In this document: positions 1,299 to 50,536 of the stretch, in pieces
Layout: each line of letters begins with the position of its first letter
Numbering within the stretch: the first letter of the stretch is position 1
Source of the DNA: a virus
Length of the DNA stretch: 50,536 bases
Direction: 5' to 3' (one strand)
IMG/VR virus record: IMGVR_UViG_3300048562_000008
The notes under the pieces: model-generated
What the model was told of the DNA's origin: nothing
Seen by the model: only the letters and a program-made list of their open reading frames with translations
Databases searched by the model: none
Translations under genes and position numbers: made by a program

Positions 1299-1741
1299 GC
1301 TTCCGCCACCTTCCAGGTCGTCGGGTGGCCCTCCTCGATGCTGTTGATGGTGCCCGTGCGGTAGCTCTTGACGAGCGGCTCCGGGTGCGTCACGCCGTCC
1401 TTGGACAGCTCGATGCCGACGAGCAGCACGTCGTCCAGGCCCTCCTTGATCGTGACCGGGATGACGTTCCGGCGCGTCCTCGGGTTGCCGAGGTTGCCGT
1501 AGTCGAACCACACCGTCGGGCGCTGGAACGTCGCGTTGGCGATCCCGTCCTCGAACCCCTCGGCGTACCCGCCGTCGGGGGCGTCTGAGTTGAGTGGGCG
1601 CTCGACGCCGCGCAGCACGGCGGTGAGCTGGTCGTACAGCTCGTCGGCCGTGCTCTCGTCCAGGAACACCGGCTCCTGGTCGCCCACCGTGACGGCAAGT
1701 AGGGGCAGGAGCTGGATCTGGCTGACTGAAACTTCGGACAT
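1295..1741 (-). CDS. hypothetical protein (148 aa, MSEVSVSQIQ...)
   Basis: ATG preceded by GGAG. It is the first gene downstream of the consensus promoter at 1772..1801. The track ORF 1295..1891 is trimmed. Confidence 0.7.
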   Translation of the reverse strand: MSEVSVSQIQLLPLLAVTVGDQEPVFLDESTADELYDQLTAVLRGVERPLNSDAPDGGYAEGFEDGIANATFQRPTVWFDYGNLGNPRTRRNVIPVTIKEGLDDVLLVGIELSKDGVTHPEPLVKSYRTGTINSIEEGHPTTWKVAEA

Positions 1742-1771
1742 GGTGAAGTCTCCTCTGTTGGGTGTCCTTCT

Positions 1772-1801
1772 AGTATATCGCGCGAAGGGGGTGTTTGTCA
1801 A
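1772..1801 (-). promoter_or_regulatory. sigma70-type promoter (TTGACA-18-TATACT)
   Basis: The minus strand reads gcccTTGACAaacacccccttcgcgcgaTATACT. It is nearly identical to the sites at 45787..45816 and 48321..48350. Confidence 0.75.
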
Positions 1802-1826
1802 GGGCTTACGCCCACCCCCTCGCGAC

Positions 1827-2690
1827 CTAGTAGTTGCAGTAGTCGCAGGCGTCGTCCCACGCGCCCTCGCCGTCGCCCCACAGGTCACCATCGTCCTCGT
1901 AGTCGTACGGCTTGACTGCCGTGGTGTACGGCTGGTCGATGATGTCGATGACGACGTACCGGCACGTGCGCATCTTCTGCGCGGAGCAGTCGGTCGGGAC
2001 GCTCACCACGTCGCGCGGGTGGACATGCACCTCCAGGAGCGCGCCCTGGGCGAACCCGTTGGCGTACTCGTAGGTGCCGACGTGCAGACCGGTGTGGCAG
2101 CCGACGCTCGGGTCGTGCTGAACCTCACCGCGCGGCATCTCGATGACGCTGCCGAGGTTGTTCGGGATCGCCCCGCTGACCTCGACGCCGTCCACGATGG
2201 CCCGGCCGCGGTTGATGGACTCGTAGCCCTCGCCGGTCGGGCGCACGCCCTTGTACCCGACGATCATGCCGTCGACCGTGATGGTGAAGGCCCCCGCGGC
2301 GAGCCAGGCGTAGAGCTGCTCGCGGCTGTGCTCGTTCGGGTTGCTCTGCACGTTCTCGAAGAACCTGACCAGCGGCAGCCAGTCGTTGACGCCCTCGTCC
2401 AGGAACCGGAGCACCTGCTCGGTGAGCGCGTTCGCGATCTCCTCGCCGTCGAGGTACAGCCGACCGTTCTTGGTCGTGACCCGCTCGGAGAGCCGCTCGA
2501 ACTTCTGGCCCACCGTGGCGGCGACATCGAACAGGGCGACGATGCTCTCGTCGTTGGCGAGTGCCAGCGCGACGATCTTCGCGAAGTTGGGGTGCGTGCT
2601 GTGGGCGACCTGCGGTGCAGCGCCCGGGACGAACACGACGATGTTGGAGTCGCCGTCGTCGTTACCGATGAGGGTGAACTGAACTGACAT
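1827..2690 (-). CDS. rIIB: rIIB-like protein
   Basis: The C-terminal block LLEVHVHPRDVVSVPTDCSAQKMRTCRYVVIDII matches T4 rIIB VVKVKVHPRDVVSIPIDYNDAKMRTCQYEVVEDV, recalled from memory. It lies directly downstream of the rIIA homolog. ATG at 2690 with a GAAGGGAG RBS. Confidence 0.85.
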   Translation of the reverse strand: MSVQFTLIGNDDGDSNIVVFVPGAAPQVAHSTHPNFAKIVALALANDESIVALFDVAATVGQKFERLSERVTTKNGRLYLDGEEIANALTEQVLRFLDEGVNDWLPLVRFFENVQSNPNEHSREQLYAWLAAGAFTITVDGMIVGYKGVRPTGEGYESINRGRAIVDGVEVSGAIPNNLGSVIEMPRGEVQHDPSVGCHTGLHVGTYEYANGFAQGALLEVHVHPRDVVSVPTDCSAQKMRTCRYVVIDIIDQPYTTAVKPYDYEDDGDLWGDGEGAWDDACDYCNY

Positions 2691-2695
2691 AGGAG

Positions 2696-4660
2696 TCAGC
2701 TCCCTTCTGCGGCGTGCGCCGCGTTGATGTAGGTGACGGCATGCTTGAGTATGTCGCCGTACAGGTCGTACTGCGGAGCGAGCAGCGGGTACTTGTCGAG
2801 CGGGTTGTCGGGCACCTTCGGAGCCTCCACCCAGGAGGCCCAGGTGACGAGCTGGGTCTTGATCGCCTTCGTGTCGTGGGTCGCGAGCTTGATGCCCTCG
2901 ACCACGGCGGGGTCGGTCACGCCGGTGAGCTTCTTGAGCTTGTTCAGCTCGCGGTTGCCCACGGTGCGCTGGAACTGCGCCGCCTTGAGGGTGTAGGCGT
3001 CCCACCCCTTAACGACCTGCTTGACGTAGGCCGCGGCGTACTGCGTCACGCTCTGCGCCATCGGGAAGTCACGCTTGAACTTCTCGACGCGGTTCGCTTC
3101 GAGGCAGACCACCAGCATGTCCTCGGGGATCATGCCGAGACGCACCTCGTTGCTGTTCTGGAGCGACCAGCGGTTGCCCTGGTAGTATAGCACAGGCTTG
3201 CTGGTGTCGATTTTCTCGGCCAGGATCGGGGCGTCCCAGCGCCCGGCCACCCGGCCCTTGTACGCGCCGCGCGGCCCAGCCTTGCGCGGGTTCGCGGGAT
3301 CGCGGGGGAGCTTGATCGCGTCGATGGTCGCCCAGTCGATGACGGTCGCGCCCTCCAGCCAGAACCGCTCGGTCGCGTTGAAGCGGCCGGGCACGAACAC
3401 GTACCGGGCCGTGTTGTCCGGGATGCCTCCGTTCTTCGCCCAGTAGTAGTCGAGCTTGGCGCGCTTCGTGGCGGTGAATGTTGCGCCCTCGAAGTTCTCG
3501 AAGTAGATGTTGGCGAGGTCGATGTTGGCCGCGCTCTGCCACGATCCGGTCAGCCTGTAGGTGCTGCTTCGGTGCGGTGTGGCGACCAGGTACGTCTCGG
3601 CCGCCTGCCGGACGTGGCCCTGGGCGTCGGTCGGTTCGCGGGAGAGGTCGCCCTGCATGGGCCTGCCGCGGTACGACGCCTCGACGGTGAGGCCAATGAC
3701 GCGCGCCTGCTGCCAGATACGGATGGCCGCAACGGGCGTCTCGGCCGCTGCTATGTTCGCGAGGAGAGCGTCGTTGAGCCTGCTGTCGCGCTCGACCTTG
3801 AGCGCCTCCAGGGTGTCCTTCGTGAGCTTGGTCATCTGGAGCGCCTCACGGCTCGGGGTGAACTGCACCGCCCCGATGGGCACGAAGGCCACCGTGTGAT
3901 CCCGCCGGTAGTACGGGCGGCGATTGTTTTTGTCCGCCGACAGCGGATCGTCCGCGACGGGGTAGGGCACGTTCCCCATGACCACGGTGTCCTCGGACAC
4001 CTCGGTCGTGATGAGGATGCTGTCGGTGATCCACTGGCCGTCGATGCGCTTCGGCTCCTCGCCGTTGACCAGCACGGTGCCGGGCTGCCAGAAGCGGAAG
4101 AACTCGTGCGCCTTGCTCTCGAACTTGTGGTGGCGCTTCGCGGGGATCGTGACCTCCACGCCCGGCAGGTCGTCGGTGTCGTGCTCGGCCACGATGGTCA
4201 TGCTGCCCGCGCCGTCCTCGTCCCGGCCGATGAGCACCTGGATCATGCGTCCGTCCTTGATGCCGGTGAGCGTGAACTGGTCGGTGTAGGTCAGGGCCGA
4301 CTTGCAGCCGAGGCCCAGCATCCCCACCACGTCGTTGCTCTGGCGCTTCGTGCTCGTGCCGTAGCGGGAATAGATGTCCCGGATGCCGTCGCCGTCCAGG
4401 CCGATGCCGTAGTCCCGGATGCGCAGGAAGGGCGACAGGGGGCTGGGGAGCGTGACCTCGATGGGGCGCTTCGTCCCGGCCTCGATGTGGCTGTCCAGCG
4501 CGTTCGTGCTGTACTCCCGGATGACGGCGGCCTCGGGGTCGGAGTAGAGGTCGGTGAGCACCGACATGATGTGCGCGAGCGCGCTCGTGTCGATGGTCAT
4601 GCCGACCTTCTCGCCGCTCACGTGGCCCTGTACGTCGAGCACTCTGTCAACTACCTTCAT
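2696..4660 (-). CDS. rIIA: rIIA-like protein with an N-terminal GHKL (HATPase_c) ATPase fold
   Basis: The motifs LYSDPEAAVIREYSTNALDSH, DYGIGL, GMLGLGCKSALTYTDQFTLT and FTPSREAL align with T4 rIIA [41 protein letters not shown] and APSREAL, recalled from memory. Confidence 0.9.
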   Translation of the reverse strand: MKVVDRVLDVQGHVSGEKVGMTIDTSALAHIMSVLTDLYSDPEAAVIREYSTNALDSHIEAGTKRPIEVTLPSPLSPFLRIRDYGIGLDGDGIRDIYSRYGTSTKRQSNDVVGMLGLGCKSALTYTDQFTLTGIKDGRMIQVLIGRDEDGAGSMTIVAEHDTDDLPGVEVTIPAKRHHKFESKAHEFFRFWQPGTVLVNGEEPKRIDGQWITDSILITTEVSEDTVVMGNVPYPVADDPLSADKNNRRPYYRRDHTVAFVPIGAVQFTPSREALQMTKLTKDTLEALKVERDSRLNDALLANIAAAETPVAAIRIWQQARVIGLTVEASYRGRPMQGDLSREPTDAQGHVRQAAETYLVATPHRSSTYRLTGSWQSAANIDLANIYFENFEGATFTATKRAKLDYYWAKNGGIPDNTARYVFVPGRFNATERFWLEGATVIDWATIDAIKLPRDPANPRKAGPRGAYKGRVAGRWDAPILAEKIDTSKPVLYYQGNRWSLQNSNEVRLGMIPEDMLVVCLEANRVEKFKRDFPMAQSVTQYAAAYVKQVVKGWDAYTLKAAQFQRTVGNRELNKLKKLTGVTDPAVVEGIKLATHDTKAIKTQLVTWASWVEAPKVPDNPLDKYPLLAPQYDLYGDILKHAVTYINAAHAAEGS

Positions 4661-4823: not shown

Positions 4824-5120
4824 TCATTCCCCGTCCTTGACCTCGATCTTCCTGGCCGGTGCGGCCGTTGTCGGAACCTTGCTCTCGTCCAGCTCGTACC
4901 AGCCGTCGCTGTCGACGCCGAGGTACGTCCGGCTCATCGGGATGCCCTCGGGCGCCCATCGGCCGTCTGTTTCCCAGTGCGCGCGCATCACGTACGCGCC
5001 GCTCACGGGGAAGCCGTCCCGCTCGATGATGCGTGCGAGACGATCCTCGACCTCATCACGTCCGCCCGCGGCGATGACGCTGCCGTTCGGCGCGGTCAGG
5101 GTGTGCTTGTCCCAGTACAT
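4824..5120 (-). CDS. hypothetical protein (98 aa, MYWDKHTL...)
   Basis: ATG preceded by GGAG, 1 nt after the stop of 5122..5385. The track ORF 4824..5237 is trimmed. Confidence 0.65.
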   Translation of the reverse strand: MYWDKHTLTAPNGSVIAAGGRDEVEDRLARIIERDGFPVSGAYVMRAHWETDGRWAPEGIPMSRTYLGVDSDGWYELDESKVPTTAAPARKIEVKDGE

Positions 5121-5121
5121 G

Positions 5122-5385
5122 CTATCGCTCCTGGTCGCGGGTGGATTCGTCGTTCTCGCTCGCTTGGTGCCCGTAGCACGTCGCCAGGTACTCATCCTGG
5201 GCCTCGTGCCACGCCTGCTCGTCCGGCGGGAGGGCATCGCCGTTCTCGTCCAGCCCGCCCTCGCCTCGCGGCATCGCGGTCGTGGCGTACTGCGCGCCGC
5301 AGTACCGGCAAGCGTTCCAGTCCAGCGCGCCCAGCGTGCCTGTCCAGCGCACCGCGGTCGATCCGCACTGCGGGCATCCGATCAT
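5122..5385 (-). CDS. zinc-ribbon protein (87 aa, MIGCPQCGS...CRYCG)
   Basis: CxxC...CxxC motif. AAGGAG RBS. The track ORF is trimmed to the RBS-supported ATG. Confidence 0.65.
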   Translation of the reverse strand: MIGCPQCGSTAVRWTGTLGALDWNACRYCGAQYATTAMPRGEGGLDENGDALPPDEQAWHEAQDEYLATCYGHQASENDESTRDQER

Positions 5386-5501
5386 CGTACACGCTCCTTC
5401 GTCGTGGTGGGTACAGTGTAGCATGCCTTGACGCGCTTGTCAAGGATGCGCTTCTCGCGCTTGCGCTTCTCGCACAGGCGGCGGTACATGTCGTTGGTCA
5501 T
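5382..5501 (-). CDS. possible micro-ORF (39 aa, MTNDMYRRLCEKRKREKRILDKRVKACYTVPTTTKERVR)
   Basis: ATGA overlap with the next gene and a start 9 nt after the previous stop. However, it fully contains the promoter-like site at 5415..5443, so the two calls may be alternatives. Confidence 0.3.
   Translation of the reverse strand: MTNDMYRRLCEKRKREKRILDKRVKACYTVPTTTKERVR
5415..5443 (-). promoter_or_regulatory. sigma70-type promoter (TTGACA-17-TACACT)
   Basis: The minus strand reads tccTTGACAagcgcgtcaaggcatgcTACACTgt. Confidence 0.55.
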
Positions 5502-5510
5502 CGTGTCCCC

Positions 5511-6083
5511 CTACTCCTCGATGTCGTGGATGTCCACCAGCTTGACGCGCGTGCCGTCCGGCCGTGTCATTGCCTCGCGGCCGATTGTCCAGATGATCGC
5601 TTGCAGGTCGCGCACGCTCTCGTCCAGCTCCGCAGCGGCCTCGCGGTACAGTCGTTCGGCCTCGCGCCGGTTGCCCACGCTGGTCGCGTCGCTCCCTGTC
5701 GCCAGCCGGAGCGCCCATCGGTCGAGCACGAGCGCGCCCGTGTCGCCCATGATCGCATCGTAGAACGGCCGCACCTTGTCGCCGGTCACGTGCTGCGACG
5801 GCTGCGGCGCGTGCCACGCCTTCCAGCACTGCGCGCCCATCCGTACGGGGTACCGGCCAACCTTCGCGCCAGGGGACGCTGCCCACGCGCGCGCCCATCG
5901 CAGGTTCGTGACTAGCTGCGTGTCGGGCGACGTGATGGCGAGCACTGCGGCGACTCGTGCCGTCGTGCTGCCGTACTGCCGCGCGATGGCCGCGCACTTG
6001 CGGCGGGTCGCAGGGTACCATGCTCGGCCGCGCTCGTGCTGCGCGGTCGTGCCGCTGCGGTACAGTGTGACGAGCGGATTCAT
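5511..6083 (-). CDS. hypothetical protein (190 aa)
   Basis: Track ORF with high GC3 and a 4-nt overlap with the upstream gene. I recognise no motif in it. Confidence 0.7.
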   Translation of the reverse strand: MNPLVTLYRSGTTAQHERGRAWYPATRRKCAAIARQYGSTTARVAAVLAITSPDTQLVTNLRWARAWAASPGAKVGRYPVRMGAQCWKAWHAPQPSQHVTGDKVRPFYDAIMGDTGALVLDRWALRLATGSDATSVGNRREAERLYREAAAELDESVRDLQAIIWTIGREAMTRPDGTRVKLVDIHDIEE

Positions 6084-6415
6084 CGTGCCGACTCCCGCGT
6101 GCCTGCGACGAATCCCACGTGGTCGACCGTCTCGACCGTGACGAGGACGCAGTCCTGATTCAGGTCGTCGGCAAGCTCACACGCCACGTGCTCTAGCCAC
6201 GTCGTGCAGTCTGCGGCGTACAGCGATTCATATCGCGCCGATTCGTCGCGGACGATGCGCGCGTCGTCGTCCAGCCACGCGCCCACGATGACCGTCGCGG
6301 AGAATCCGCCGAACCGTGCGAGTAGCGCGCGCTCCAGCCTTGCGTGCGCTGCCGTCGTCACGTCGTCGGGCAGTCCCGGTACGCGCGTCGGTAGGATGAT
6401 GGTATGCCGGTACAC
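6080..6415 (-). CDS. hypothetical protein (111 aa, VYRHTIILPT...)
   Basis: GTG start with a GAGAGGA RBS. The track ORF 6080..6472 is trimmed. Confidence 0.5.
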   Translation of the reverse strand: MYRHTIILPTRVPGLPDDVTTAAHARLERALLARFGGFSATVIVGAWLDDDARIVRDESARYESLYAADCTTWLEHVACELADDLNQDCVLVTVETVDHVGFVAGTRESAR

Positions 6416-6471
6416 GTCAGTCCTCTCGGTCGTGGGTAGACACAGTGTAGTCGAGTCGTGCGGGTCGCGCA

Positions 6472-6494
6472 TCCGTAGTAACTACTGATTCTCG
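6472..6494. repeat. 23-bp perfect direct repeat, copy 1 (tccgtagtaactactgattctcg), containing the palindrome GTAGT-A-ACTAC
   Basis: Identical to 6694..6716. It covers the last four codons plus stop (ENQ*) of 6482..6664 and the 10 nt downstream. Confidence 0.9.
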
Positions 6495-6664
6495 TCCAGC
6501 TCCCGCACGCCCCACGCGCTGTTCCGGTTGGCGCGGCCTTCGCGCTCATTGCGCTCCCGCGCCGCGCGCTGTATGGCCTCGCGCGGCAACCCGGTGAAGG
6601 CATGCTCGATGCGCAGCACGCGGCCGGTGGCCCTGTTCCAGAAGATCAGCTGATGCTTTCTCAT
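6482..6664 (-). CDS. hypothetical protein (60 aa)
   Basis: Track ORF with high GC3. It ends in ENQ* inside the 23-bp repeat. Confidence 0.55.
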   Translation of the reverse strand: MRKHQLIFWNRATGRVLRIEHAFTGLPREAIQRAARERNEREGRANRNSAWGVRELDENQ

Positions 6665-6693
6665 CAGTGTACTCGCTTTCGGTCGGGGTGTCG

Positions 6694-6716
6694 TCCGTAG
6701 TAACTACTGATTCTCG
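6694..6716. repeat. 23-bp perfect direct repeat, copy 2
   Basis: Identical to 6472..6494. It covers the last codons (ENQ*) of 6704..7027. Confidence 0.9.
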
Positions 6717-7027
6717 CGGACGGCTTGCGCGGCGGCTCGGATGCCCTTGCGGGACTTGACTCCGCGGGCGACCACGTCCGCGCGGTCGAGCATCGCGTCC
6801 GACAGGGTACCGCCGTTCCGCTTGCGCGCCGTGCGGAGCCGCGCGGGGTCGAGATGGAGAACCGTGACGGATGAGCGGAGCTTGCCGCGCGGAACGCTCG
6901 TGCGGGGCTTGCGGACGTAGCTCGCGAGGTGCCGAGCGCCTGCGTTCGGATTGCCGTGCCGTCGGGTGTCGTCGGGCGACGGGGGCGCGTGTGGGTGGAC
7001 AAGTTGCGGGCGGGATAGGGTAGACAT
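6704..7027 (-). CDS. hypothetical basic protein (107 aa, MSTLSRPQL...)
   Basis: ATG preceded by GGAG. It is the first gene of the leftward block. The track ORF 6704..7060 is trimmed. Confidence 0.6.
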   Translation of the reverse strand: MSTLSRPQLVHPHAPPSPDDTRRHGNPNAGARHLASYVRKPRTSVPRGKLRSSVTVLHLDPARLRTARKRNGGTLSDAMLDRADVVARGVKSRKGIRAAAQAVRENQ

Positions 7028-7189
7028 GGTCGCTCCATTCGTCGCGCGGATAGGGTTCACTTGGTGTGTGGATACAGCGTAGTCGATTGCGTCGGCGCGC
7101 GTGTAAAGACTTTGTAAGGATACGGGGGTCGTGAGGGGTAGCCCCGTTCGCTGTCATCGGTGCCCATAGCTGACGACACCCCGTCGATT

Positions 7190-7219
7190 CGAACGTCTGT
7201 TCGTACGAACACATGTTCG
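7190..7219. promoter_or_regulatory. tandem CGAAC-N4-GTTCG inverted repeats (candidate operator pair)
   Basis: The sequence CGAACgtctGTTCGtaCGAACacatGTTCG is followed at once by TTGACA (7222..7227). A third copy, CGAACacacGTTCG, lies at 11079..11092. Confidence 0.5.
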
Positions 7220-7377
7220 TGTTGACATCCACGTCAAGACACGCGAGGCGTCCTAGCCCAGTTGGGAAGGGTGTGGCCCCCGTTATTGGGGTGACACGCG
7301 ACTATGAACGCGTAGGTCACAATGTGCGCACCCTGGGTCCTCGACCCCCGCAGTGTGGGACACACAGGCCTCAGAAC

Positions 7378-7396
7378 GGTACTCTATGAGTAGAGG
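7378..7396 (+). repeat. 19-nt AT-rich repeat GGTACTCTATGAGTAGAGG, copy 1
   Basis: Exact second copy at 7838..7856. It contains the hairpin CTCTA-tgag-TAGAG. These are the only two copies in the window. Confidence 0.85.
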
Positions 7397-7837
7397 GGCA
7401 AAACAGGCCCCCCGGTAGCAAGCACTGTGGAACAGGTCACAGAGAGCGCGTCCCCGCTCCCTTGGCGTCCGCGGGCACGCTGGAACGATGGATGGAGACG
7501 TAGTGAGTACTGGGGCGCAGCCCCTAATTGTTAGGCCCCCGGCAGTGCTACCGGCGGGTCCAACCGCTGCTACAAGCGCCTACCGTATAGACAACAACCA
7601 CCTCGGCTAGGGTTCTCTAGCCTGGCACGGCAGCGAGGTGGGAATACCGCAGCCCCTACCGGCGTTTACTACACTAGGACGGGTCCGGCCCCCAGGTGTC
7701 GATAAGGGGGCCGGACGGCGGGGAATGGACCCTGCCCTCTACACCTGCCAGGGGCGGGGGAGCGACCCCCCGGAGCGACTCCCGCACCGCTCAAGTCATC
7801 ACGCGCGCGATCCGCTGGGACAGACACACCCCAAAAG

Positions 7838-7856
7838 GGTACTCTATGAGTAGAGG
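7838..7856 (+). repeat. 19-nt AT-rich repeat GGTACTCTATGAGTAGAGG, copy 2
   Basis: Exact copy of 7378..7396, lying 28 nt upstream of the first tRNA. Confidence 0.85.
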
Positions 7857-7883
7857 CCCGTTTTGCGACGCAGCCTCAACCGT

Positions 7884-7954
7884 GCATCGTCCTCCGGGAG
7901 GCCCAGCGGCTCCAACCCGCCGGGAGCAGCGTTCGACTCGTTGACGGTGTGCCA
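7884..7954 (+). tRNA. tRNA-Trp(CCA), reduced D arm
   Basis: Acceptor GCATCGT/ACGGTGT (2 GU pairs), then G and CCA. D hairpin CCTC-cgg-GAGG. Anticodon loop CTCCAAC. T arm CAGCG-TTCGACT-CGTTG. 68 nt before the CCA. Confidence 0.55.
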
Positions 7955-7955
7955 T

Positions 7956-8032
7956 GCACGCGTAGCTCAGTCAGTGAGAGCGTCGGCTTGCCAAGTCGAA
8001 GGTCGCGGGAGCAAAGCCCGCCACGTGCTCCA
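7956..8032 (+). tRNA. tRNA-Gly(GCC)
   Basis: Acceptor GCACGCG/CACGTGC (1 mismatch). D arm TAGCTCAGTCAGTGAGAGC. Anticodon loop TTGCCAA. T arm GCGGG-AGCAAAG-CCCGC. CCA is encoded. Confidence 0.7.
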
Positions 8033-8085
8033 TGGCGAAACGGGGTCGGCCACCGGCCGTGTACCCGGAGTAGCCTCCCTTTCAA

Positions 8086-8161
8086 GCCGCTGTAGTGTCA
8101 GCACTCAGCACACCTGCCTTCCAAGCAGGGGGCCTCGGTGGGAATCCGAGTAGCGGCTCCA
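8086..8161 (+). tRNA. tRNA-Gly(TCC)
   Basis: Acceptor GCCGCTG/TAGCGGC. Anticodon stem CCTGC/GCAGG with loop CTTCCAA. T arm CTCGG-TGGGAAT-CCGAG. CCA is encoded. Confidence 0.65.
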
Positions 8162-8235
8162 ATTCCCCGCAGCATCCAACGACACGTCTTCACCCATACC
8201 CAGAGACGTTGCAGGCAGCGCGGGGAACCTCCTTC

Positions 8236-8308
8236 GGGGCCAGCCAGAAGGCTGGGGGCCAGGCTTGCACCCTGCGCCAGTAGGGCGCGATACCCTATGG
8301 CTCCACCA
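8236..8308 (+). tRNA. tRNA-Ala(TGC), reduced D arm
   Basis: Acceptor GGGGCCA/TGGCTCC with G3:U70. D hairpin CCAG-aagg-CTGG. Anticodon loop CTTGCAC. T arm TAGGG-CGCGATA-CCCTA. CCA is encoded. Confidence 0.55.
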
Positions 8309-8382
8309 TCTTGCCCGGACTAGGGGCATACACGACGGCGCGCTGCTAGTCCCAGCGCGCCAACTGCCATCTCGTACGACAT

Positions 8383-8468
8383 GCGGAGGCGTCGGAGTTG
8401 GAGAGCCGAGACGGGCTGTAACCCCGTTGCCACAGGCTGAGTGAGTTCGAATCTCACACCCCGCACCA
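8383..8468 (+). tRNA. tRNA-Tyr(GTA), long variable arm
   Basis: Anticodon stem ACGGG/CCCGT with loop CTGTAAC. D stem TCGG/CCGA. Variable arm of 13 nt. T arm GTGAG-TTCGAAT-CTCAC. The acceptor has 2 mismatches. CCA is encoded. Confidence 0.65.
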
Positions 8469-8469
8469 T

Positions 8470-8545
8470 GTTGACGTAGCTGAGTCAGTTCAAGCACCGG
8501 GTTGAAACCCCGGGGACGCAGGGGCGGAACCTGCCGTTGACACCA
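8470..8545 (+). tRNA. tRNA-Phe(GAA)
   Basis: Acceptor GTTGACG/CGTTGAC (2 GU pairs). Anticodon stem CCGGG/CCCGG with loop TTGAAAC. T arm GCAGG-GGCGGAA-CCTGC. CCA is encoded. Confidence 0.65.
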
Positions 8546-8616
8546 TGTTCGAGAGCCTTCGTGGTCCGAAGTACAAGGGCTGGGCCGGACGCATCGCGCC
8601 CCTCTCGGCACACCTT

Positions 8617-8689
8617 CTCGTCGTAGCTCAGTGGACAGAGCGCAGCCCTGCGAAGGCTGAGGCCGGTGGTTCGACCCCACCCGTCGAGA
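8617..8689 (+). tRNA. tRNA-Arg(GCG)
   Basis: Acceptor CTCGTCG/CGTCGAG. D arm TAGCTCAGTGGACAGAGC. Anticodon stem CAGCC/GGCTG with loop CTGCGAA. T arm GGTGG-TTCGACC-CCACC. No CCA is encoded. Confidence 0.75.
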
Positions 8690-8696
8690 CCTACAA

Positions 8697-8767
8697 GCCC
8701 ACGCCGCTAGTGCGGCCTCTCCCCTGGTACGGGAGGGAACCTGGCGCGAAACCAGGCGTTGGCTCCA
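8697..8767 (+). tRNA. tRNA-Thr(GGT), reduced D arm
   Basis: Acceptor GCCCACG/CGTTGGC (1 mismatch). D hairpin CCGC-tagt-GCGG. Anticodon stem CTCCC/GGGAG with loop CTGGTAC. T arm CCTGG-CGCGAAA-CCAGG. 68 nt before the CCA. Confidence 0.55.
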
Positions 8768-8768
8768 T

Positions 8769-8843
8769 GAGCCGCAAGTCTCAAGTGAGATCCCTGGGCT
8801 GTGAATCCGGGCGGGCTGGGCGCGATACCCAGGCGACTCTCCA
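8769..8843 (+). tRNA. tRNA-His(GTG), reduced D arm
   Basis: Acceptor GAGCCGC/GCGACTC (1 mismatch). D hairpin TCTC-aagt-GAGA. Anticodon loop CTGTGAA. T arm CTGGG-CGCGATA-CCCAG. CCA is encoded. Confidence 0.55.
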
Positions 8844-8850
8844 TCTTCAT

Positions 8851-8925
8851 CCGTCGGTACGCTAACTGGCAAACGGCCTGGCTCTTACCCAGGTATTCTA
8901 GGTTCGACCCCTAGGCGACGGACCA
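8851..8925 (+). tRNA. tRNA-Lys(CTT)
   Basis: Acceptor CCGTCGG/GCGACGG. Anticodon stem CCTGG/CCAGG with loop CTCTTAC. T arm CTAGG-TTCGACC-CCTAG. CCA is encoded. Confidence 0.75.
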
Positions 8926-9195
8926 TTTCGGCAGGACAGACCAGCGCGGCGACTCTGACTTTACGGGCGCCGAGGAAGGTCGGGACACCTGACCCCGGGG
9001 CGGACAGAACCGGGCGAAACGTGCCGCAGCCAACAGGGAGCCTCCGGGCGTCACACCTGAACGCCGGGCGGGGTGCAACCTCAAGAGGACGGCCACCGCA
9101 GGCTGGACGGGTAGAGGGCAGCGCGACGGCGCATCCGCAAGGATAGACAGATGCTGGTCCACGACAAAATCCCGCCTACAAAGCCGAAACACCCC

Positions 9196-9272
9196 GCACC
9201 GCAAGTCCACCGGTTGTGGACGATGTCCTGATAAGGCATTTGAGCTAGGTTCGACTCCTAGGCGCTGCACCA
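9196..9272 (+). tRNA. tRNA-Ile(GAT)
   Basis: Acceptor GCACCGC/GCGCTGC (1 mismatch). D stem GTCC/GGAC. Anticodon stem ATGTC/GGCAT with loop CTGATAA. T arm CTAGG-TTCGACT-CCTAG. CCA is encoded. Confidence 0.75.
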
Positions 9273-9273
9273 C

Positions 9274-9346
9274 CTCCTCGTAGCTCAGCGGACAGAGCGG
9301 CACGTTTCTACCGTGCGCGCCGGGCGTTCGACTCGTCCCGAGGAGT
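9274..9346 (+). tRNA. tRNA-Arg(TCT)
   Basis: Perfect acceptor CTCCTCG/CGAGGAG. D arm TAGCTCAGCGGACAGAGC. Anticodon stem GCACG/CGTGC with loop TTTCTAC. T arm GGGCG-TTCGACT-CGTCC. Confidence 0.8.
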
Positions 9347-9365
9347 CTACTTGACAGGTACGCAT

Positions 9366-9441
9366 GGCCCGGTCGTCTACAGGTTGTGGACACTCGGCTC
9401 TCAACCGAGAGGTCAGGGATCGTTACCCTGTCGGGCTACCA
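9366..9441 (+). tRNA. tRNA-Glu(CTC)
   Basis: Acceptor GGCCCGG/TCGGGCT (GU pairs). D stem GTCT/GGAC. Anticodon stem CTCGG/CCGAG with loop CTCTCAA. T arm CAGGG-ATCGTTA-CCCTG. CCA is encoded. Confidence 0.65.
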
Positions 9442-9537
9442 TTTTCGAGAGATGTAGGATCAGCACGAGGCGCCCCGCTATAACGGGATAAAGCGGACGC
9501 TGCCCCTGATGGCTGGTTCGTCCCGAGGCATTTTCCA

Positions 9538-9613
9538 CGCTCCATAGCTCAGCGAACAGAGCAGCGGGCTTCGAACCCGCGTGTCGGAGGTTTGACTCCT
9601 CCTGGGGCGTCCA
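9538..9613 (+). tRNA. tRNA-Arg(TCG)
   Basis: Acceptor CGCTCCA/TGGGGCG. D arm TAGCTCAGCGAACAGAGC. Anticodon stem GCGGG/CCCGC with loop CTTCGAA. T arm GGAGG-TTTGACT-CCTCC. CCA is encoded. Confidence 0.75.
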
Positions 9614-9617
9614 TCGT

Positions 9618-9691
9618 GTCGACGTGGCCGAGCGGCAAGGCACTGGGTTGCAACCCCAGCTACGCAGGTCCGAACCCTGCCGTCGATTCCA
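9618..9691 (+). tRNA. tRNA-Cys(GCA)
   Basis: Acceptor GTCGACG/CGTCGAT. Anticodon stem CTGGG/CCCAG with loop TTGCAAC. T arm GCAGG-TCCGAAC-CCTGC. CCA is encoded. Confidence 0.7.
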
Positions 9692-9796
9692 ATTCCATCC
9701 CAACCGCGCTTGACCAGCCGAGAACCCTTCGGGGGGTAGCAGAAATGGTCTCTGCATACGGGATGACAGCACCGCCCCGACTCCAACAACTTTCAT

Positions 9797-9873
9797 CCGC
9801 GAGTAGCTCAGTCCAGGAGAGCGCCTGCCTTACAAGCAGGGCGTCGGGGGAGCGAAGCCCTCCTTGCGGACCA
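9797..9873 (+). tRNA. tRNA-Val(TAC)
   Basis: Acceptor CCGCGAG/CTTGCGG. D arm TAGCTCAGTCCAGGAGAGC. Anticodon stem CCTGC/GCAGG with loop CTTACAA. T arm GGGGG-AGCGAAG-CCCTC. CCA is encoded. Confidence 0.75.
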
Positions 9874-9876
9874 TTT

Positions 9877-9961
9877 GCCCCAGTGATGGAACTGGTAGAC
9901 ATGACCGGCTCAGACCCGGTTGCCGAGAGGCGTGAGGGTTCGACTCCCTCCTCGGGGCACC
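9877..9961 (+). tRNA. tRNA-Leu(CAG), long variable arm
   Basis: Leu-type D region TGATGGAACTGGTAGACAT. Anticodon stem ACCGG/CCGGT with loop CTCAGAC. Variable arm of 13 nt. T arm GAGGG-TTCGACT-CCCTC. The acceptor GCCCCAG/CTCGGGGC has one extra nt. CCA is encoded. Confidence 0.65.
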
Positions 9962-9967
9962 ACTTCA

Positions 9968-10042
9968 AGCCGGACAGGTGTAGACAGCGACATCCCTGTT
10001 TCGTAATCAGGGGAGCGCGGTGCAAGTCCGTGGTTCGGCTCC
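9968..10042 (+). tRNA. tRNA-Thr(CGT)
   Basis: Acceptor GCCGGAC/GTTCGGC. Anticodon loop TTCGTAA on a 4-bp stem. T arm CGCGG-TGCAAGT-CCGTG. CCA is encoded. Confidence 0.6.
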
Positions 10043-10049
10043 AGCTTCA

Positions 10050-10125
10050 CCCACGTGTCGTTCAATTGGTAGGACGCGCCCCTGTTAAGGGCAGAATCTA
10101 GGTTCGAGACCTAGCGTGTGGGCCA
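10050..10125 (+). tRNA. tRNA-Asn(GTT)
   Basis: Acceptor CCACGTG/CGTGTGG (GU pairs). D arm GTTCAATTGGTAGGAC. Anticodon loop CTGTTAA. T arm CTAGG-TTCGAGA-CCTAG. CCA is encoded. Confidence 0.75.
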
Positions 10126-10131
10126 CTTCGT

Positions 10132-10206
10132 CTGAGAGTCCTCTAACCGGTAGGAGACCTGGCTCTGAACCAGGCAATCTAGGTTCGATCCCTAGCACTC
10201 AGGCCA
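10132..10206 (+). tRNA. tRNA-Gln(CTG)
   Basis: Acceptor CTGAGAG/CACTCAG (1 mismatch). Anticodon stem CCTGG/CCAGG with loop CTCTGAA. T arm CTAGG-TTCGATC-CCTAG. CCA is encoded. Confidence 0.75.
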
Positions 10207-10213
10207 TATTCAT

Positions 10214-10288
10214 CGAGACGTAGGCATCTAGTGAGGCCGCGCGGCTGTCTACCGCGTGAGGCGGGTGCGATCCCCGTCGTCTTGACCA
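10214..10288 (+). tRNA. tRNA-Asp(GTC)
   Basis: Acceptor CGAGACG/CGTCTTG. Anticodon stem CGCGG/CCGCG with loop CTGTCTA, which has an unusual T at position 37. T arm GCGGG-TGCGATC-CCCGT. CCA is encoded. Confidence 0.65.
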
Positions 10289-10294
10289 CTTCAT

Positions 10295-10372
10295 CCGAAA
10301 GAGGCGGTGGTAGATCCGCACCCGGTTCGGAGCCGGGAGACCTCGCTGGTGCAATTCCAGCCTTTCGGACCA
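10295..10372 (+). tRNA. tRNA-Pro(CGG)
   Basis: Perfect acceptor CCGAAAG/CTTTCGG. D stem GCGG/CCGC. Anticodon stem CCCGG/CCGGG with loop TTCGGAG. T arm GCTGG-TGCAATT-CCAGC. CCA is encoded. Confidence 0.7.
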
Positions 10373-10378
10373 TTTCGA

Positions 10379-10451
10379 CGCGGGTTACTTCCGGTGACGT
10401 AGACGGCCTCATAAGCCCTCCAGACGAGTTCGACTCTCGTACCCGCTACCA
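10379..10451 (+). tRNA. tRNA-Met(CAT) (elongator, initiator or Ile2 not resolved)
   Basis: Anticodon loop CTCATAA. T arm ACGAG-TTCGACT-CTCGT. The acceptor CGCGGGT/ACCCGCT has a 1:72 mismatch, which is initiator-like. Short D arm. CCA is encoded. Confidence 0.6.
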
Positions 10452-10501
10452 CCGTGCCCCGTGCGCGCGCCCGTTGGGGCGCTGGCGGCGGGGATCCCCT
10501 T

Positions 10502-10586
10502 GGAAGGTCGCATTGGCGTGCTTATGCGGTTCGAACCCGTTGATGGCCTCACGGCCGTGGGAGTTCGACTCTCCCACCTTCCTCCA
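10502..10586 (+). tRNA. tRNA-Ser(CGA), long variable arm
   Basis: Perfect acceptor GGAAGGT/ACCTTCC. Anticodon loop TTCGAAC on a weak 4-bp stem. Variable hairpin GGCC-tcac-GGCC. T arm GGGAG-TTCGACT-CTCCC. CCA is encoded. Confidence 0.6.
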
Positions 10587-10593
10587 GTTTCAT

Positions 10594-10679
10594 GGAAAGC
10601 GTCCGAATGGACGAGGACCCGCCCTGCTAAGGCGGCGCGCCGCAAGGCGTTGAGGGTTCGATGCCCTCGCTTTCCTCCA
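10594..10679 (+). tRNA. tRNA-Ser(GCT), long variable arm
   Basis: Perfect acceptor GGAAAGC/GCTTTCC. Anticodon stem CCGCC/GGCGG with loop CTGCTAA. Variable hairpin CGCC-gcaa-GGCG. T arm GAGGG-TTCGATG-CCCTC. CCA is encoded. Confidence 0.75.
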
Positions 10680-10680
10680 T

Positions 10681-10698
10681 CTTGGCCTTCGGGCCAAG
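10681..10698 (+). other. 7-bp hairpin with a UUCG tetraloop directly after the last tRNA
   Basis: CTTGGCC-ttcg-GGCCAAG begins 2 nt after tRNA-Ser(GCT). It may be a processing or stability element. There is no U-tract. Confidence 0.4.
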
Positions 10699-11043
10699 TT
10701 CCGCCCCCGGGCGGGTGTTGTGTGCGGCTTGTCTAGGCAGTCGTGTCGATCCGCGAGCGTGCTGCAGTCGTCCACGTGGTGTCCCCACCATAGGGCATGT
10801 GCGGGGCGTAAGGCAGCTAGGCGTTAGAGTCCTGATCCGACTCGTTGCGCTCCGCAGTAGGGCACAGGTGGTACCGTGAAGTCGGCCACCCAGTCCGAAC
10901 CGGAAGCGCAGGCGCTGACCAGCCAGAGCTGCGCGTGTTCGATGCTAAGGCGCCTCTGCTGACGGCAGTAAGTCCAGAGGCTAAACCGATGGTCACTCCC
11001 AAGGTGGCCGTGGAGTCGGGGCGGTCACTTCGTCACTCAACAC

Positions 11044-11067
11044 CCGCCGGGGGCGGTTTCTCTATTT
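11044..11067 (+). terminator. candidate intrinsic terminator closing the RNA island
   Basis: CCGCC-ggg-GGCGG followed by TTTCTCTATTT. The stem is short, so this call is tentative. Confidence 0.4.
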
Positions 11068-11078
11068 GCCCTGAAATA

Positions 11079-11092
11079 CGAACACACGTTCG
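11079..11092. promoter_or_regulatory. CGAAC-N4-GTTCG inverted repeat, third copy, just upstream of the first late gene
   Basis: TACGAACACACGTTCG differs at one base from TACGAACACATGTTCG at 7204..7219. It lies 9 nt upstream of the ATG at 11101. Confidence 0.5.
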
Positions 11093-11100
11093 GAGGTGCG

Positions 11101-11424
11101 ATGGCCGGAACCTTTCAGGGCGGCGTGCTCGTCGTGCCCTCAGGGCTGGACGTTGTGACCCTCACCGTGAGCACCGCTGCGGTGGGTCCGGTCGCGCTAT
11201 CCTTCCCCGCACACAACCTGCGGCGCACCGTAGCACAGGCCAGCGGCAAGCTGCGCTGGACGGCCGCACCCGGAGCCTCCACAGACCCAACGGCGACCTT
11301 CGGACTCAAGCTGGACGTTGACCAGACGCTGGTGTACGACGGCGACCTGGAGAACCTGCGGTTCATCCGCGACGCGGCGCAGGGATCGGATGTCACCGTG
11401 ACACTTCACTACTTCGGACTCTAG
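11101..11424 (+). CDS. hypothetical protein (107 aa), first gene of the rightward protein block
   Basis: GGAGG RBS, high GC3, track ORF. Confidence 0.65.
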   Translation: MAGTFQGGVLVVPSGLDVVTLTVSTAAVGPVALSFPAHNLRRTVAQASGKLRWTAAPGASTDPTATFGLKLDVDQTLVYDGDLENLRFIRDAAQGSDVTVTLHYFGL

Positions 11425-11432
11425 GAGGCCCC

Positions 11433-11627
11433 ATGTTTCAGCGCAAGACGCGCGTGCAGATGCTCGTATCTGTCGACGCCAAGGCCGCAGGCACCAAGCA
11501 CCGCCTGCCCAAGCAGCTCGCGGACGAGTACATCCTCAAGGGGTACGCGACCGGGAGCCTGACCCGCCAGTACTCGGAGTTCGAGCGCGCGGCGCTCACC
11601 GCCAACTCCCAGGTAGTGGGGGCGTAA
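11433..11627 (+). CDS. hypothetical protein (64 aa)
   Basis: Track ORF with an AGGAGG RBS and tight spacing to its neighbours. Confidence 0.55.
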   Translation: MFQRKTRVQMLVSVDAKAAGTKHRLPKQLADEYILKGYATGSLTRQYSEFERAALTANSQVVGA

Positions 11628-41733: not shown

Positions 41734-42498
41734 CTAGAATGGGATGTGGTTGCCGTACGTCTGCTTCTCGGCCATGTTATAGACGCCGACCTCGTGGTCG
41801 ACGCCGATGGGCACGACCGACTGAATCGGGTCACCCGCCTTCGCCATGAGGAAGGGCACCATCTCGTTCAGCCGCGCCAGCTCCTGCGGCGGACCCTCCC
41901 ACACGATCTCGTCGTGGACGACCGACAGCATCTTGCTCTCGATCTCCTCGGCCTCAGCCCACACCTCGCAGAGGAGGAGTGCGCGCTTCATCAGGTGAGC
42001 CGCGCTGCCCTGGATCAGTTTGTTCAACAGCTTGTGCTCGCCGTACGCCTCCGGGTGAAGGTGTCGCCCCCACGGGGTGCGCACGAAGCCCCGCGAACTT
42101 GCAGTACGCGCCACGCCATCCTGGAGTGTGCGTACGATGGGAAGGCCTCGATGGAACTTGCTGACCATCGCCTTGGCCTTGGCCTGATCGACGCCGAACT
42201 GCTCCTGAATAGTGCGCACGCCCCCGCCGTACATCAGCGAGAGGAACATGATCTTGCCCTCCTGCCGCTGCTCGGGAGTGATCTTGTCGCCGTAGACCGA
42301 CACCAGGATGGCGGTGTACGGATCGAGGCCGTCGATCATGCGCTGCGCGAGGTCCTTGTCGCCCTTGAGGGACGCGAAGTATGCGAGGATGCGCGGCTCG
42401 ATCTGCTGATAGTCGAAGAATGAGAAGACACACCCGTCCCGGGGGACGAAGGCGGTCTTCACCACCTTGTCGTCCCTCGGGATGTTCTGGAAGTTGAT
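41734..42498 (-). CDS. family-A DNA polymerase, C-terminal fragment (palm and fingers, motifs A, B and C)
   Basis: In-frame INFQNIPRDD begins directly after the TAG of the upstream ORF. Motif A FFDYQQIEPRILA. Motif B RQEGKIMFLSLMYGGG. Motif C VVHDEIVWE. The first canonical start is a GTG at 42465, downstream of NFQNIP. Confidence 0.8.
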   Translation of the reverse strand: MNFQNIPRDDKVVKTAFVPRDGCVFSFFDYQQIEPRILAYFASLKGDKDLAQRMIDGLDPYTAILVSVYGDKITPEQRQEGKIMFLSLMYGGGVRTIQEQFGVDQAKAKAMVSKFHRGLPIVRTLQDGVARTASSRGFVRTPWGRHLHPEAYGEHKLLNKLIQGSAAHLMKRALLLCEVWAEAEEIESKMLSVVHDEIVWEGPPQELARLNEMVPFLMAKAGDPIQSVVPIGVDHEVGVYNMAEKQTYGNHIPF

Positions 42499-50484: not shown

Positions 50485-50536
50485 GACGTGCGCTTCTTCC
50501 GGCGGGCCTCAGTCCGCTCCAGCCGCCAGTGCAGCG

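Follow-up and report, generated by a model that had tools for sequence, protein, structure and literature searches.

A candidate miniature RNase P RNA embedded in a 25-gene tRNA array of a 50.5-kb phage genome

Clusters of transfer RNA (tRNA) genes are a familiar feature of phage genomes, those of T4 and T5 included. Shigella phage Sf14 carries 26 tRNAs for 19 amino acids (PMC12482277), jumbo phage XacN1 carries 56 tRNAs for all 20 amino acids (PMC5852040), and huge phages have up to 67, tRNA number normally rising with genome length (PMC7162821). The array described here lies at positions 7884-10679 of a viral contig of 50,536 nucleotides (IMG/VR record IMGVR_UViG_3300048562_000008; the whole stretch is referred to as the window). 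It resembles known phage tRNA clusters in that its genes are co-oriented, as they are in lytic phages, in that sets serving 20 amino acids are already known, and in that the same roles (codon adaptation and escape from tRNA-targeting defences) have been proposed. Such clusters are, however, typically found in large genomes, whereas here 25 genes are contained in 50.5 kb, the elbows of half of them are non-canonical, and the array encloses an RNase P RNA. The interpretation favoured below, which is held to be probable, is that 7884-10679 constitutes one co-oriented 25-tRNA operon interrupted by a phage-encoded, reduced RNase P RNA, together forming a module for independence in tRNA supply.

The RNase P element is 270 nt long and lies flush between the genes for tRNA-Lys (ending at 8925) and tRNA-Ile (starting at 9196). 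In a search over 4.5 kb, the Rfam model of bacterial class A RNase P RNA (RF00010) gave a weak but full-length match (model positions 1-367, 19.6 bits, E = 0.0028). Three of the conserved regions (CR) of the family could be aligned to the model, namely CR-I as GAGGAAGGUCGGG (8972-8986), CR-IV as UAGACAGAUG (9144-9153) and CR-V as ACAAAAUCCCGCCUAC (9164-9179). The GGU of loop L15 was found within ACGGGUAG (9107-9114), GGUGCAA corresponds to P5 and J5/15, and P18 is represented by AUCC-GCAA-GGAU (9133-9144) with a GNRA loop. Complementarity is complete in P1 (8926-8932/9183-9189, 7/7), P2 (8939-8945/9153-9159, 7/7) and P5 (8986-8989/9072-9075, 4/4), and P4 forms with its bulged U, two of its pairs being compensatorily changed relative to E. 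coli-type sequences. In RNase P RNA the L15 GGU pairs with the 3'-CCA of the tRNA, while the specificity domain (S-domain) reads the tRNA elbow. It is in the S-domain that the phage element is reduced: the remnant at 8990-9071 comprises 82 nt, compared with approximately 140-160 model positions, and the full specificity domain (P7-P14, CR-II and CR-III) is not present. No description of a phage-encoded RNase P RNA was found in the literature searched, including papers on an RNase P gene finder and on huge phages, a result that is not proof of absence. When the element was compared by blastn with 50,697 GenBank phage records, no homolog was detected, one search giving as its only match a Salmonella chromosome's own rnpB.

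Elements of the same kind were recovered from other viral or metagenomic contigs. A pattern scan of IMG/VR, in which CR-I, CR-IV and CR-V were required at short spacing and the variable P4/P5 positions were left unconstrained (N), returned 16 loci, 14 of them distinct, on contigs of 22-498 kb. A scan of JGI metagenomes with the window-type pattern added one further locus, L032, belonging to an unrelated small array; on this 1.5-kb contig the RNase P-like element (1112-1450) directly follows tRNA-Lys(CTT), as in the window. Of these 15 distinct loci, 13 are situated within or close to tRNA clusters, and in about 10 a tRNA on the same strand is the immediate neighbour. Five of the phage homologs, with lengths of 207-290 nt, exceed the RF00010 gathering score (118-155 bits), and a hidden Markov model built from these five RNAs gave a single match in the window, at 9144-9180 (E = 3e-4). 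Covariation was assessed in the 12 pairs of P4 and P5 across 15 distinct sequences, comprising that of the window and 14 IMG/VR homologs. Pairing was seen in 98.9% of cells, compared with 82.9% in shuffles, none of 500 shuffles reaching the observed value, and changes on both sides were found in 31 cells where 9 were expected. Sliding the partner strand by 1-3 columns caused pairing to fall to 29-44%. Eight pairs of P4 are 100% paired in the 15 sequences, three of them changing on both sides (AU/GC; GC/AU/CG; AU/GC/GU), and P2 also covaries across the homologs. On these sequence grounds, the window element is regarded as a genuine, size-reduced RNase P RNA homolog of a phage-associated group.

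The same pattern was found 22 times among the 185,579 species genomes of GTDB, mostly in metagenome-assembled genomes (MAGs), including those of Patescibacteria; 16 of these loci are without tRNA and six have one or two. The association of mini RNase P RNA with tRNA arrays is accordingly a viral one. The matches in Candidatus Shapirobacteria and other Patescibacteria MAGs (L043, L046, L047, L052, L058 and L059), which have no nearby tRNA array, may be native RNase P RNAs with reduced S-domains. Among the phage tRNA arrays with a mini RNase P RNA, two also contain a transfer-messenger RNA (tmRNA; L013, 10752-11164, and L025, 2540-2928), and in L013 the tmRNA is followed by a 52-nt fragment resembling positions 1095-1146 of 23S ribosomal RNA.

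In bacterial RNase P it is the catalytic domain (C-domain) of the RNA that binds RnpA. Activity of the phage element is plausible by analogy with other reduced enzymes: the bacterial C-domain alone is catalytically active (PMC5839562), and PMC7191817, citing Lai et al. 2010, reports activity for type-T RNase P RNAs of archaea in which most of the S-domain is missing. It is also conceivable that the RNA acts as a decoy or regulator, titrating host RnpA or competing with host RNase P to the detriment of host tRNA maturation, with the array itself being processed by host RNase P. Such a role would accord with the retention of the RnpA-binding C-domain, with the absence of a phage rnpA from the 30 open reading frames (ORFs) scanned, and with the lowered in vitro activity of bacterial RNase P RNA upon S-domain loss (PMC5839562). 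A decoy, however, has no need of a catalytic P4 with bulged U, of the L15 GGU, of J18/2 or of CR-IV/V, all of which are kept in the 15 sequences, and a flush placement among substrates is what co-processing predicts. The decoy explanation is consequently thought improbable.

The tRNA genes themselves had been identified in a preliminary description of the window, made by hand folding of the sequence, which listed 25 cloverleaf candidates. All 25 were found to be present, with the positions, order and anticodons claimed and all on the + strand (Table 1); 22 are well supported, and three, Thr(GGT), His and Ala, are tentative. ARAGORN with default settings called 18 island tRNAs, all within 7956-10679 on the + strand, and returned 0 matches in the other 47.7 kb on both strands. 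With the -ps option 21 island tRNAs were called, the additional ones being Trp (7884-7954), Val (9797-9873) and Met (10379-10451), and as there was again no match elsewhere in the window at the same setting (47.7 kb, both strands), these 21 calls are considered robust. The -ps80 option added Thr(GGT) and Thr(CGT), with approximately 1.1 false matches per kb-strand outside the island, and the -mt option added His and Thr(CGT), with 11 matches elsewhere in the window; since false matches are this frequent, detection solely at -ps80 or -mt means little. Context nevertheless rescues most of the weaker calls. Outside the island, -ps80 matches that end in CCA and read Thr, His or Ala occur at 0.032 per kb-strand, giving an expectation of about 0.03 for the 843 nt of free + strand space within it, where 2 were observed. 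Thr(CGT) is backed by a default-scoring Thr(CGT) at the same syntenic place in a related contig, L061. The minimum-free-energy (MFE) fold of Thr(GGT) is a perfect cloverleaf (60% of the ensemble), and Thr(GGT) and His together fill the interval from Arg to Lys exactly, leaving spacers of 5, 1 and 7 nt. The Ala candidate at 8236-8308 was called by no tool; by eye it shows G3:U70, A73, CCA and a CUUGCAC anticodon loop, its D and anticodon stems being irregular. Support for the odd tRNAs was judged by false-positive rates and orthologs; a MAFFT alignment mis-registered the anticodon loops and two 5' ends.

The preliminary description had also stated that its reading would fall if covariance models rejected a large share of the calls. 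The outcome was divided: 14 of the 25 genes reach the gathering score (29 bits) of the Rfam tRNA model RF00005, and 11 fall below it, among them four with weak matches to the tRNA-Sec clan and seven with none at E<=10. The model accepts only 14 because about half of the genes carry non-canonical T or D loops. For 24/25, ARAGORN produced a cloverleaf structure in which the acceptor stem has 7 bp, the anticodon stem 5 bp and the anticodon loop 7 nt with U33, Ala being fitted by hand. The T-loops of about 12/25 deviate from U54-U55-C56-R-A58 (for example, AGCAAAG, CGCGAUA and UGCAAUU) and so do not provide a canonical elbow; C56 is retained in 23/25, and several D-loops are without GG (G18-G19). 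For annotation this serves as a warning, as up to 40% of the genes in arrays of this sort escape the standard tRNA covariance models. Coverage of all 20 amino acids, likewise claimed, is solid for 18 and provisional for Ala and His, whose calls are weak. The encoded CCA reported for most genes was seen in 23/25, the exceptions being Arg(GCG) and Arg(TCT), and the tight spacing was borne out by 15 tRNA-tRNA junctions of 1-7 nt. Most of the tRNA 5' leaders read ...TTCAT (yUUCAU).

Seven in-array spacers are longer, at 50-105 nt, and several are tRNA-sized (8033-8085, 8162-8235, 8309-8382, 8546-8616, 9442-9537, 9692-9796 and 10452-10501). Those beginning at 8546 and 9442 open with a common motif, UUCGAGAG, and the 50-nt spacer ahead of Ser(CGA) is absent from the related contig L027. 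These spacers could be tRNA remnants, processing signals or small RNAs.

Table 1. Features of the tRNA island, in map order
Feature	Position	Strand	Evidence and remarks
Promoter-like repeat, copy 1 (41 nt, ending in 19-mer GGTACTCTATGAGTAGAGG)	7356..7396	+	promoter role inferred
Promoter-like repeat, copy 2	7816..7856	+	ends 27 nt upstream of tRNA-Trp; promoter role inferred
tRNA-Trp (CCA)	7884..7954	+	ARAGORN -ps; CCA encoded; no Rfam match
tRNA-Gly (GCC), T-loop AGCAAAG	7956..8032	+	ARAGORN default; Rfam 56.1 bits; paralog of Val(TAC)
tRNA-Gly (TCC)	8086..8161	+	ARAGORN default; Rfam 46 bits
Candidate tRNA-Ala (TGC), weakest call	8236..8308	+	manual; T-arm UAGGG-CGCGAUA-CCCUA like that of His; MFE fold not a cloverleaf
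tRNA-Tyr (GTA), long variable arm	8383..8468	+	ARAGORN default; weak tRNA-Sec clan match, 27.3 bits
tRNA-Phe (GAA)	8470..8545	+	ARAGORN default; Rfam 47.2 bits
tRNA-Arg (GCG), 3' end ACCU, no full CCA	8617..8691	+	ARAGORN default; Rfam 62.8 bits, best in island
Candidate tRNA-Thr (GGT), tiny D-loop, T-loop CGCGAAA	8697..8767	+	ARAGORN -ps80 only; CCA encoded
Candidate tRNA-His (GTG), T-loop CGCGAUA, no G-1:C73	8769..8843	+	ARAGORN -mt only; CCA encoded; 1-nt and 7-nt spacers
tRNA-Lys (CTT)	8851..8925	+	ARAGORN default; Rfam 40.6 bits; paralog of Gln(CTG)
Miniature bacterial-type RNase P RNA	8926..9195	+	full-length RF00010 alignment
tRNA-Ile (GAT)	9196..9272	+	ARAGORN default; Rfam 41.2 bits
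tRNA-Arg (TCT), CCA not encoded	9274..9347	+	ARAGORN default; Rfam 50.4 bits
tRNA-Glu (CTC)	9366..9441	+	ARAGORN default; Rfam 43.2 bits
tRNA-Arg (TCG)	9538..9613	+	ARAGORN default; Rfam 57.4 bits
tRNA-Cys (GCA)	9618..9691	+	ARAGORN default; Rfam 58.3 bits
tRNA-Val (TAC), T-loop AGCGAAG	9797..9873	+	ARAGORN -ps; Rfam 50.8 bits
tRNA-Leu (CAG), long variable arm	9877..9962	+	ARAGORN default; Rfam 39.4 bits; CCA encoded
tRNA-Thr (CGT), T-loop UGCAAGU	9969..10043	+	ARAGORN -ps80, -mt; L061 ortholog with 2 double-compensatory acceptor changes
tRNA-Asn (GTT)	10051..10125	+	ARAGORN default; Rfam 47.4 bits; 4 double-compensatory acceptor pairs vs L061
tRNA-Gln (CTG)	10132..10206	+	ARAGORN default; Rfam 50.8 bits
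tRNA-Asp (GTC), U37, T-loop UGCGAUC	10214..10288	+	ARAGORN default; no Rfam match; 4 double-compensatory acceptor pairs vs L061, L031
tRNA-Pro (CGG), T-loop UGCAAUU	10295..10372	+	ARAGORN default; T-loop kept in L061, 5 acceptor pairs and T-stem covary
tRNA-Met (CAT), initiator-like, C1xU72 mismatch	10379..10451	+	ARAGORN -ps
tRNA-Ser (CGA)	10502..10586	+	ARAGORN default; orthologs in L027, L030, L061
tRNA-Ser (GCT)	10594..10679	+	ARAGORN default; orthologs in L027, L030, L061
Structured RNA, ~360 nt, no Rfam family	10700..11065	+	conserved; closes island; terminator-like hairpin and U-tract 11044-11065

Codon use was analysed for 50 ORFs (12,925 codons), assuming standard wobble. The proposal that the anticodons suit the phage's own preferred codons was upheld, as the commonest codon of every degenerate family is read by a phage tRNA, through Watson-Crick pairing in 15 of 17 families and through wobble for Ala and Val. 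Early and late genes, which it had been proposed to compare, are alike in their codon use, and the two results together argue against classic supplementation of rare codons, as had been supposed. The further suggestion that the host pool is replaced was correct in so far as supply is near-complete, but full replacement is an overstatement, since the set reads 82% of the codons (67% via Watson-Crick pairing). The codons without a phage tRNA include CTC (43% of Leu), CCC (33% of Pro) and TCC (23% of Ser); AAA, GAA, CAA and ATA are likewise unread, and GCC and GTC are too unless U34 reads the whole box. The set probably has no elongator Met tRNA. One odd anticodon loop was noted, that of tRNA-Asp with U37. 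The unusual Arg anticodon GCG had been read correctly and belongs to the island's best-scoring tRNA (62.8 bits); it pairs directly with CGC, which makes up 50% of the Arg codons, and would do so without the A34-to-inosine editing needed by bacterial tRNA-Arg(ACG).

These results bear on classical codon compensation, according to which the tRNAs would serve codons used more than in the host and speed the synthesis of late proteins, the RNase P RNA just adding capacity. PMC10264068 describes compensation as the most widely accepted hypothesis for phage tRNAs, and it would be in keeping with the location of the genes just upstream of the structural genes on the same strand and with a set that is incomplete at the codon level (82% read), as a supplement would be. 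The tRNAs, however, serve the codons that are commonest in each family of this 66% GC genome, none is provided for the rare A/T-ending codons AAA, GAA, CAA, ATA and TTA/TTG, and one tRNA for each of the 20 amino acids looks like a complete kit, leaving compensation an unlikely explanation. Insurance against tRNA cleavage or depletion, offered in the preliminary description, is a plausible idea that has already been published (PMC10264068, PMC11555353, PMC11464382), and the co-encoded RNase P RNA gives independent support to the view that the phage invests in autonomy of its tRNA supply. No tRNA-repair or CCA-adding genes were found in the 30 ORFs scanned, some small ORFs lying outside the scan.

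The history of the array was approached through relatives that carry part of the island, namely L027/L028 (neighbouring protein 73% identical), L030 (65%), L061 (TerL 72%) and L031 (ERZ650159; near-identical to the window). The ortholog tests cover the 3' third of the island, with eight tRNA types drawn from L027, L030, L031 and L061; Ala, His, Thr(GGT), Trp and the window-type RNase P RNA fall outside the ortholog set, the closer relatives being short contigs, and a search via the left-flank proteins returned only identical copies or a contig stopping short of the island. In L061 the order Thr(CGT)-Asn-Asp-Pro-Met-Ser-Ser is retained, except that Gln stands last in the array. Comparison of the window with L061 showed 15 double-compensatory changes among the 28 acceptor-stem pairs of Thr, Asn, Asp and Pro, with 0 pairs broken; the odd T-loop of Pro, UGCAAUU, is kept while its stem covaries. 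The C1xU72 mismatch of Met, an initiator hallmark, is retained in three variants, including those of L027 and L061, the cloverleaf being preserved by compensatory changes. As judged from these alignments, the substitution pattern is that of selection on tRNA structure, not of decay.

Paralogs were recognised within the array, including Gly(GCC)/Val(TAC) (70% identical), Lys/Gln (74%), Phe/Cys and the three Arg genes, and the discriminator bases suit the identities reached after divergence (U73 in Gly and A73 in Val). Such pairs with fitting discriminator bases imply that some of the genes originated in the phage lineage itself, through duplication and a switch of anticodon. From Met onward L031 matches the window exactly, but its Asp and Pro genes are different and more canonical (L031 1-190 compared with window 10180-10372); as they differ at the same positions, the array is a mosaic, which indicates cassette-like exchange inside it. 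That the island might instead be a recently captured, decaying mobile "tRNA array unit", with many pseudo-tRNAs and with an RNase P piece that is a relic of host rnpB, is very unlikely: horizontally moving tRNA arrays are known in mycobacteria and their phages (PMC5966550, PMC6582537), 11/25 genes are below the Rfam threshold, T/D loops are non-canonical in around half, the island is missing from relatives at 62-64% TerL identity and the near-identical L031 has different Asp and Pro genes, but stems change compensatorily without broken pairs, unusual loops are kept at 72% TerL identity, CCA ends and uniform leaders are maintained, and the RNase P core has every conserved region and covaries across phages, with deletions confined to the S-domain and P12-P14 region rather than random.

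The island occupies a discrete place in the genome. Leftward genes stop at 7060 and rightward structural genes begin at 11101, with no convincing ORF in the 4,040 nt between them, so that the tRNA stretch makes up 5.5% of the genome and the entire non-coding island (7061-11100) 8.0%; tRNA density over the whole genome is approximately 0.5 per kb. Upstream, the 19-mer GGTACTCTATGAGTAGAGG is present in exactly two copies in the window and in 0 of 100 shuffles, and the copies of the extended 41-nt repeat are 85% identical. A sigma-70 promoter scan of the island region gave no sites. The sequence at 7397-7837 was considered as a structured RNA and rejected, its fold z-score of -1.24 not being significant. 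By contrast with this stretch, the RNA at 10700-11065 has a fold z-score of -3.63 (0/100 shuffles as stable), is closed by a 16-bp long-range helix, and shows compensatory changes in 27/128 consensus pairs across 3 sequences; it is carried by the relatives L027 (276-640), L030 and L061 (~790-1150). It is reminiscent of GOLLD and ROOL, which are RNAs found alongside phage tRNA clusters, but matches neither family model, and no Rfam match of any kind was obtained for it at E<=10 (scan of 7000-11500).

Under the favoured reading of an operon with its own RNase P RNA, the island would be transcribed as a single precursor, starting probably at the promoter-like repeat ending at 7856, which is perhaps read by a phage sigma factor, and ending at the hairpin and U-tract near 11060. 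One RNase P cut at each tRNA 5' end would then yield nearly mature tRNAs with 1-7 nt of 3' trimming left; a single cut is expected to suffice because the genes are 1-7 nt apart, share a yUUCAU leader and mostly have their own CCA. The same cuts would free the ribozyme, whose 5' end abuts the CCA of tRNA-Lys and whose 3' end lies 6 nt short of the point where tRNA-Ile would be cut. The freed ribozyme may act with host RnpA, proposed because no rnpA was seen among the 30 ORFs scanned, or it may act alone. The module as a whole would allow G/C-ending phage codons to be translated largely independently of host tRNA supply and processing capacity during infection, a shortfall in host tRNA conceivably being caused by high demand, host shut-off or tRNA-targeting defences. 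Of all the steps proposed, this purpose of freeing the phage from host tRNA supply and processing is the least certain.

Several observations weigh against the reading of the locus as an autonomous module. The match of the RNase P element to RF00010 (19.6 bits) is well below the gathering score of 100, its 82-nt S-domain remnant is not alignable to the model, and no rnpA was found among the 30 ORFs scanned, some small ORFs lying outside the scan. The Ala, His and Thr(GGT) genes are still tentative, and approximately 18% of codons are unread by the set, which leaves the phage dependent on host tRNAs for these. RNase P would not suffice for the eight longer spacers (18-105 nt), which hold stable hairpins and would call for additional processing. 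It was also considered whether the reduced S-domain is causally linked to the odd tRNA elbows; this idea has been down-weighted, since canonical tRNAs accompany the mini RNase P RNA of L012. Lastly, two relatives of 48-50 kb with TerL 62-64% identical, L005 and L009, have no tRNAs. L005 is syntenic with the window and L009 partly so; in L009 none of the left-flank genes matches those of the window, and synteny there is not established. At the syntenic junction of L005, between a leftward DUF7178-type block and rightward late genes, there is a 2.4-kb stretch (4994-7390) with few, doubtful called genes, and L009 has 1.9 kb without called genes (1556-3470) upstream of a gene for an FtsH-like AAA+/M41 protease.

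The window is a complete 50,536-bp contig that was independently assembled in several JGI and Logan samples, two independent assemblies being of exactly equal size and circularly permuted. It is a podovirus-like genome of 50.5 kb with a GC content of 66%, encoding a P22-type portal, an SU10-type capsid protein, TerL and rIIA/rIIB, together with a split family-A DNA polymerase and two ECF-like sigma factors. The polymerase is split into two ORFs with a metallophosphoesterase gene between them (41734-42465, 43011-43634 and 43725-44768, - strand). No close cultured phage was found, TerL being at most 27% identical to that of any and no DNA match being obtained; megablast of the island against the 50,697 GenBank phage records gave no match, and a protein search of IMG/VR for relatives of the window found none. 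The window ends (1-127 and 50187-50536) have a 127-bp repeat in common, and there is a 78-bp repeat near 50187-50264. In a 132-kb JGI contig (L034, 16901-20324), phage sequence is joined at approximately window position 50259 to unrelated DNA encoding ThiF and a TrwC-type relaxase, which may reflect chimeric assembly, or else a junction formed by integration or with a plasmid. GAAC-N4-GTTC palindromes TACGAACACATGTTCG flank the island at both divergent gene starts (two tandem copies at 7188-7219, and 11077-11092) and are kept in the relatives L027 and L061 upstream of the first late gene. The palindrome matches the LexA/SOS box known from Gram-positive bacteria and actinobacteria. Such LexA-like boxes suggest that the phage, with its 66% GC, has an actinobacterial host and is subject to SOS-linked control.

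The island may be set beside several described systems. The mycobacterial "tRNA array units" (PMC5966550, PMC6582537) are horizontally mobile groups of some 30 tRNA genes, known from high-GC actinobacteria and their phages, and have a large structured RNA (GOLLD) beside them; the window array likewise ends with a structured RNA of approximately 360 nt, but the mycobacterial arrays are not reported to contain rnpB. The theta (hepatitis delta virus-like) ribozymes of gut phages (PMC10879173) also lie directly beside tRNA genes and have a proposed role in maturation. They are, however, small and self-cleaving in cis, whereas the element described here is a homolog of RNase P, a trans-acting, multiple-turnover enzyme for tRNA 5' ends. 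With class A RNase P RNA (RF00010; E. coli M1 RNA) it has in common CR-I/IV/V, P1-P5, the P4 pseudoknot with bulged U, the P15/L15 GGU and a P18 GNRA loop. The class A RNAs are approximately 350-400 nt long, whereas the phage element, virus-encoded inside a tRNA operon, is 270 nt, with an S-domain cut to 82 nt. What is new is the mini RNase P RNA embedded in a phage tRNA array, and not the idea of tRNA replacement or insurance. RNase P RNA has been regarded as a universal cellular and organellar ribozyme, and a viral version would add a catalytic RNA to the translation-related functions of phages. These naturally minimised bacterial-type RNase P RNAs, down to ~207 nt, would lend themselves to structure-function work, and the layout is a natural counterpart of the synthetic "tRNA array" designs for minimal translation systems (PMC12381190). 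A 50-kb genome giving 8% of its DNA to such a module also provides a strong case in which host autonomy can be set against codon fine-tuning.

The closest functional counterparts are the type-T RNase P RNAs and the organelle genomes in which rnpB lies beside a full tRNA set. The type-T RNAs (Thermoproteaceae, Pyrobaculum) are archaeal and chromosomal and constitute the cell's sole RNase P, whereas the phage element, in which L15 and P18 are present, follows the bacterial type A design and would supplement the host enzyme as an additional copy. Membership of the archaeal type was rejected, as the only RNase P family matched was bacterial class A, and the likeness is a functional one, lying in the reduced S-domain. 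Fungal mitochondrial DNAs of 40-50 kb contain 24-26 tRNA genes and one rnpB (PMC8856043). Such organelle genomes are, like that of the phage, small, with a near-complete tRNA set, tRNA-punctuated polycistronic transcripts and a reduced RNase P RNA on the same genome. An extended form of the proposal, considered to have a slightly better than even chance of being correct, is that the island is an organelle-like, self-contained module of tRNA biogenesis, in which a full amino-acid set is combined with an active, S-domain-reduced ribozyme that is freed from, and processes, the same transcript, and that it represents a widespread and previously undescribed viral class (16 viral or metagenomic contigs of 1.5-498 kb). 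The RNase P genes of organelle and phage differ in origin, the organelle rnpB being a vertical remnant of the endosymbiont's only enzyme and the phage copy an accessory gene.

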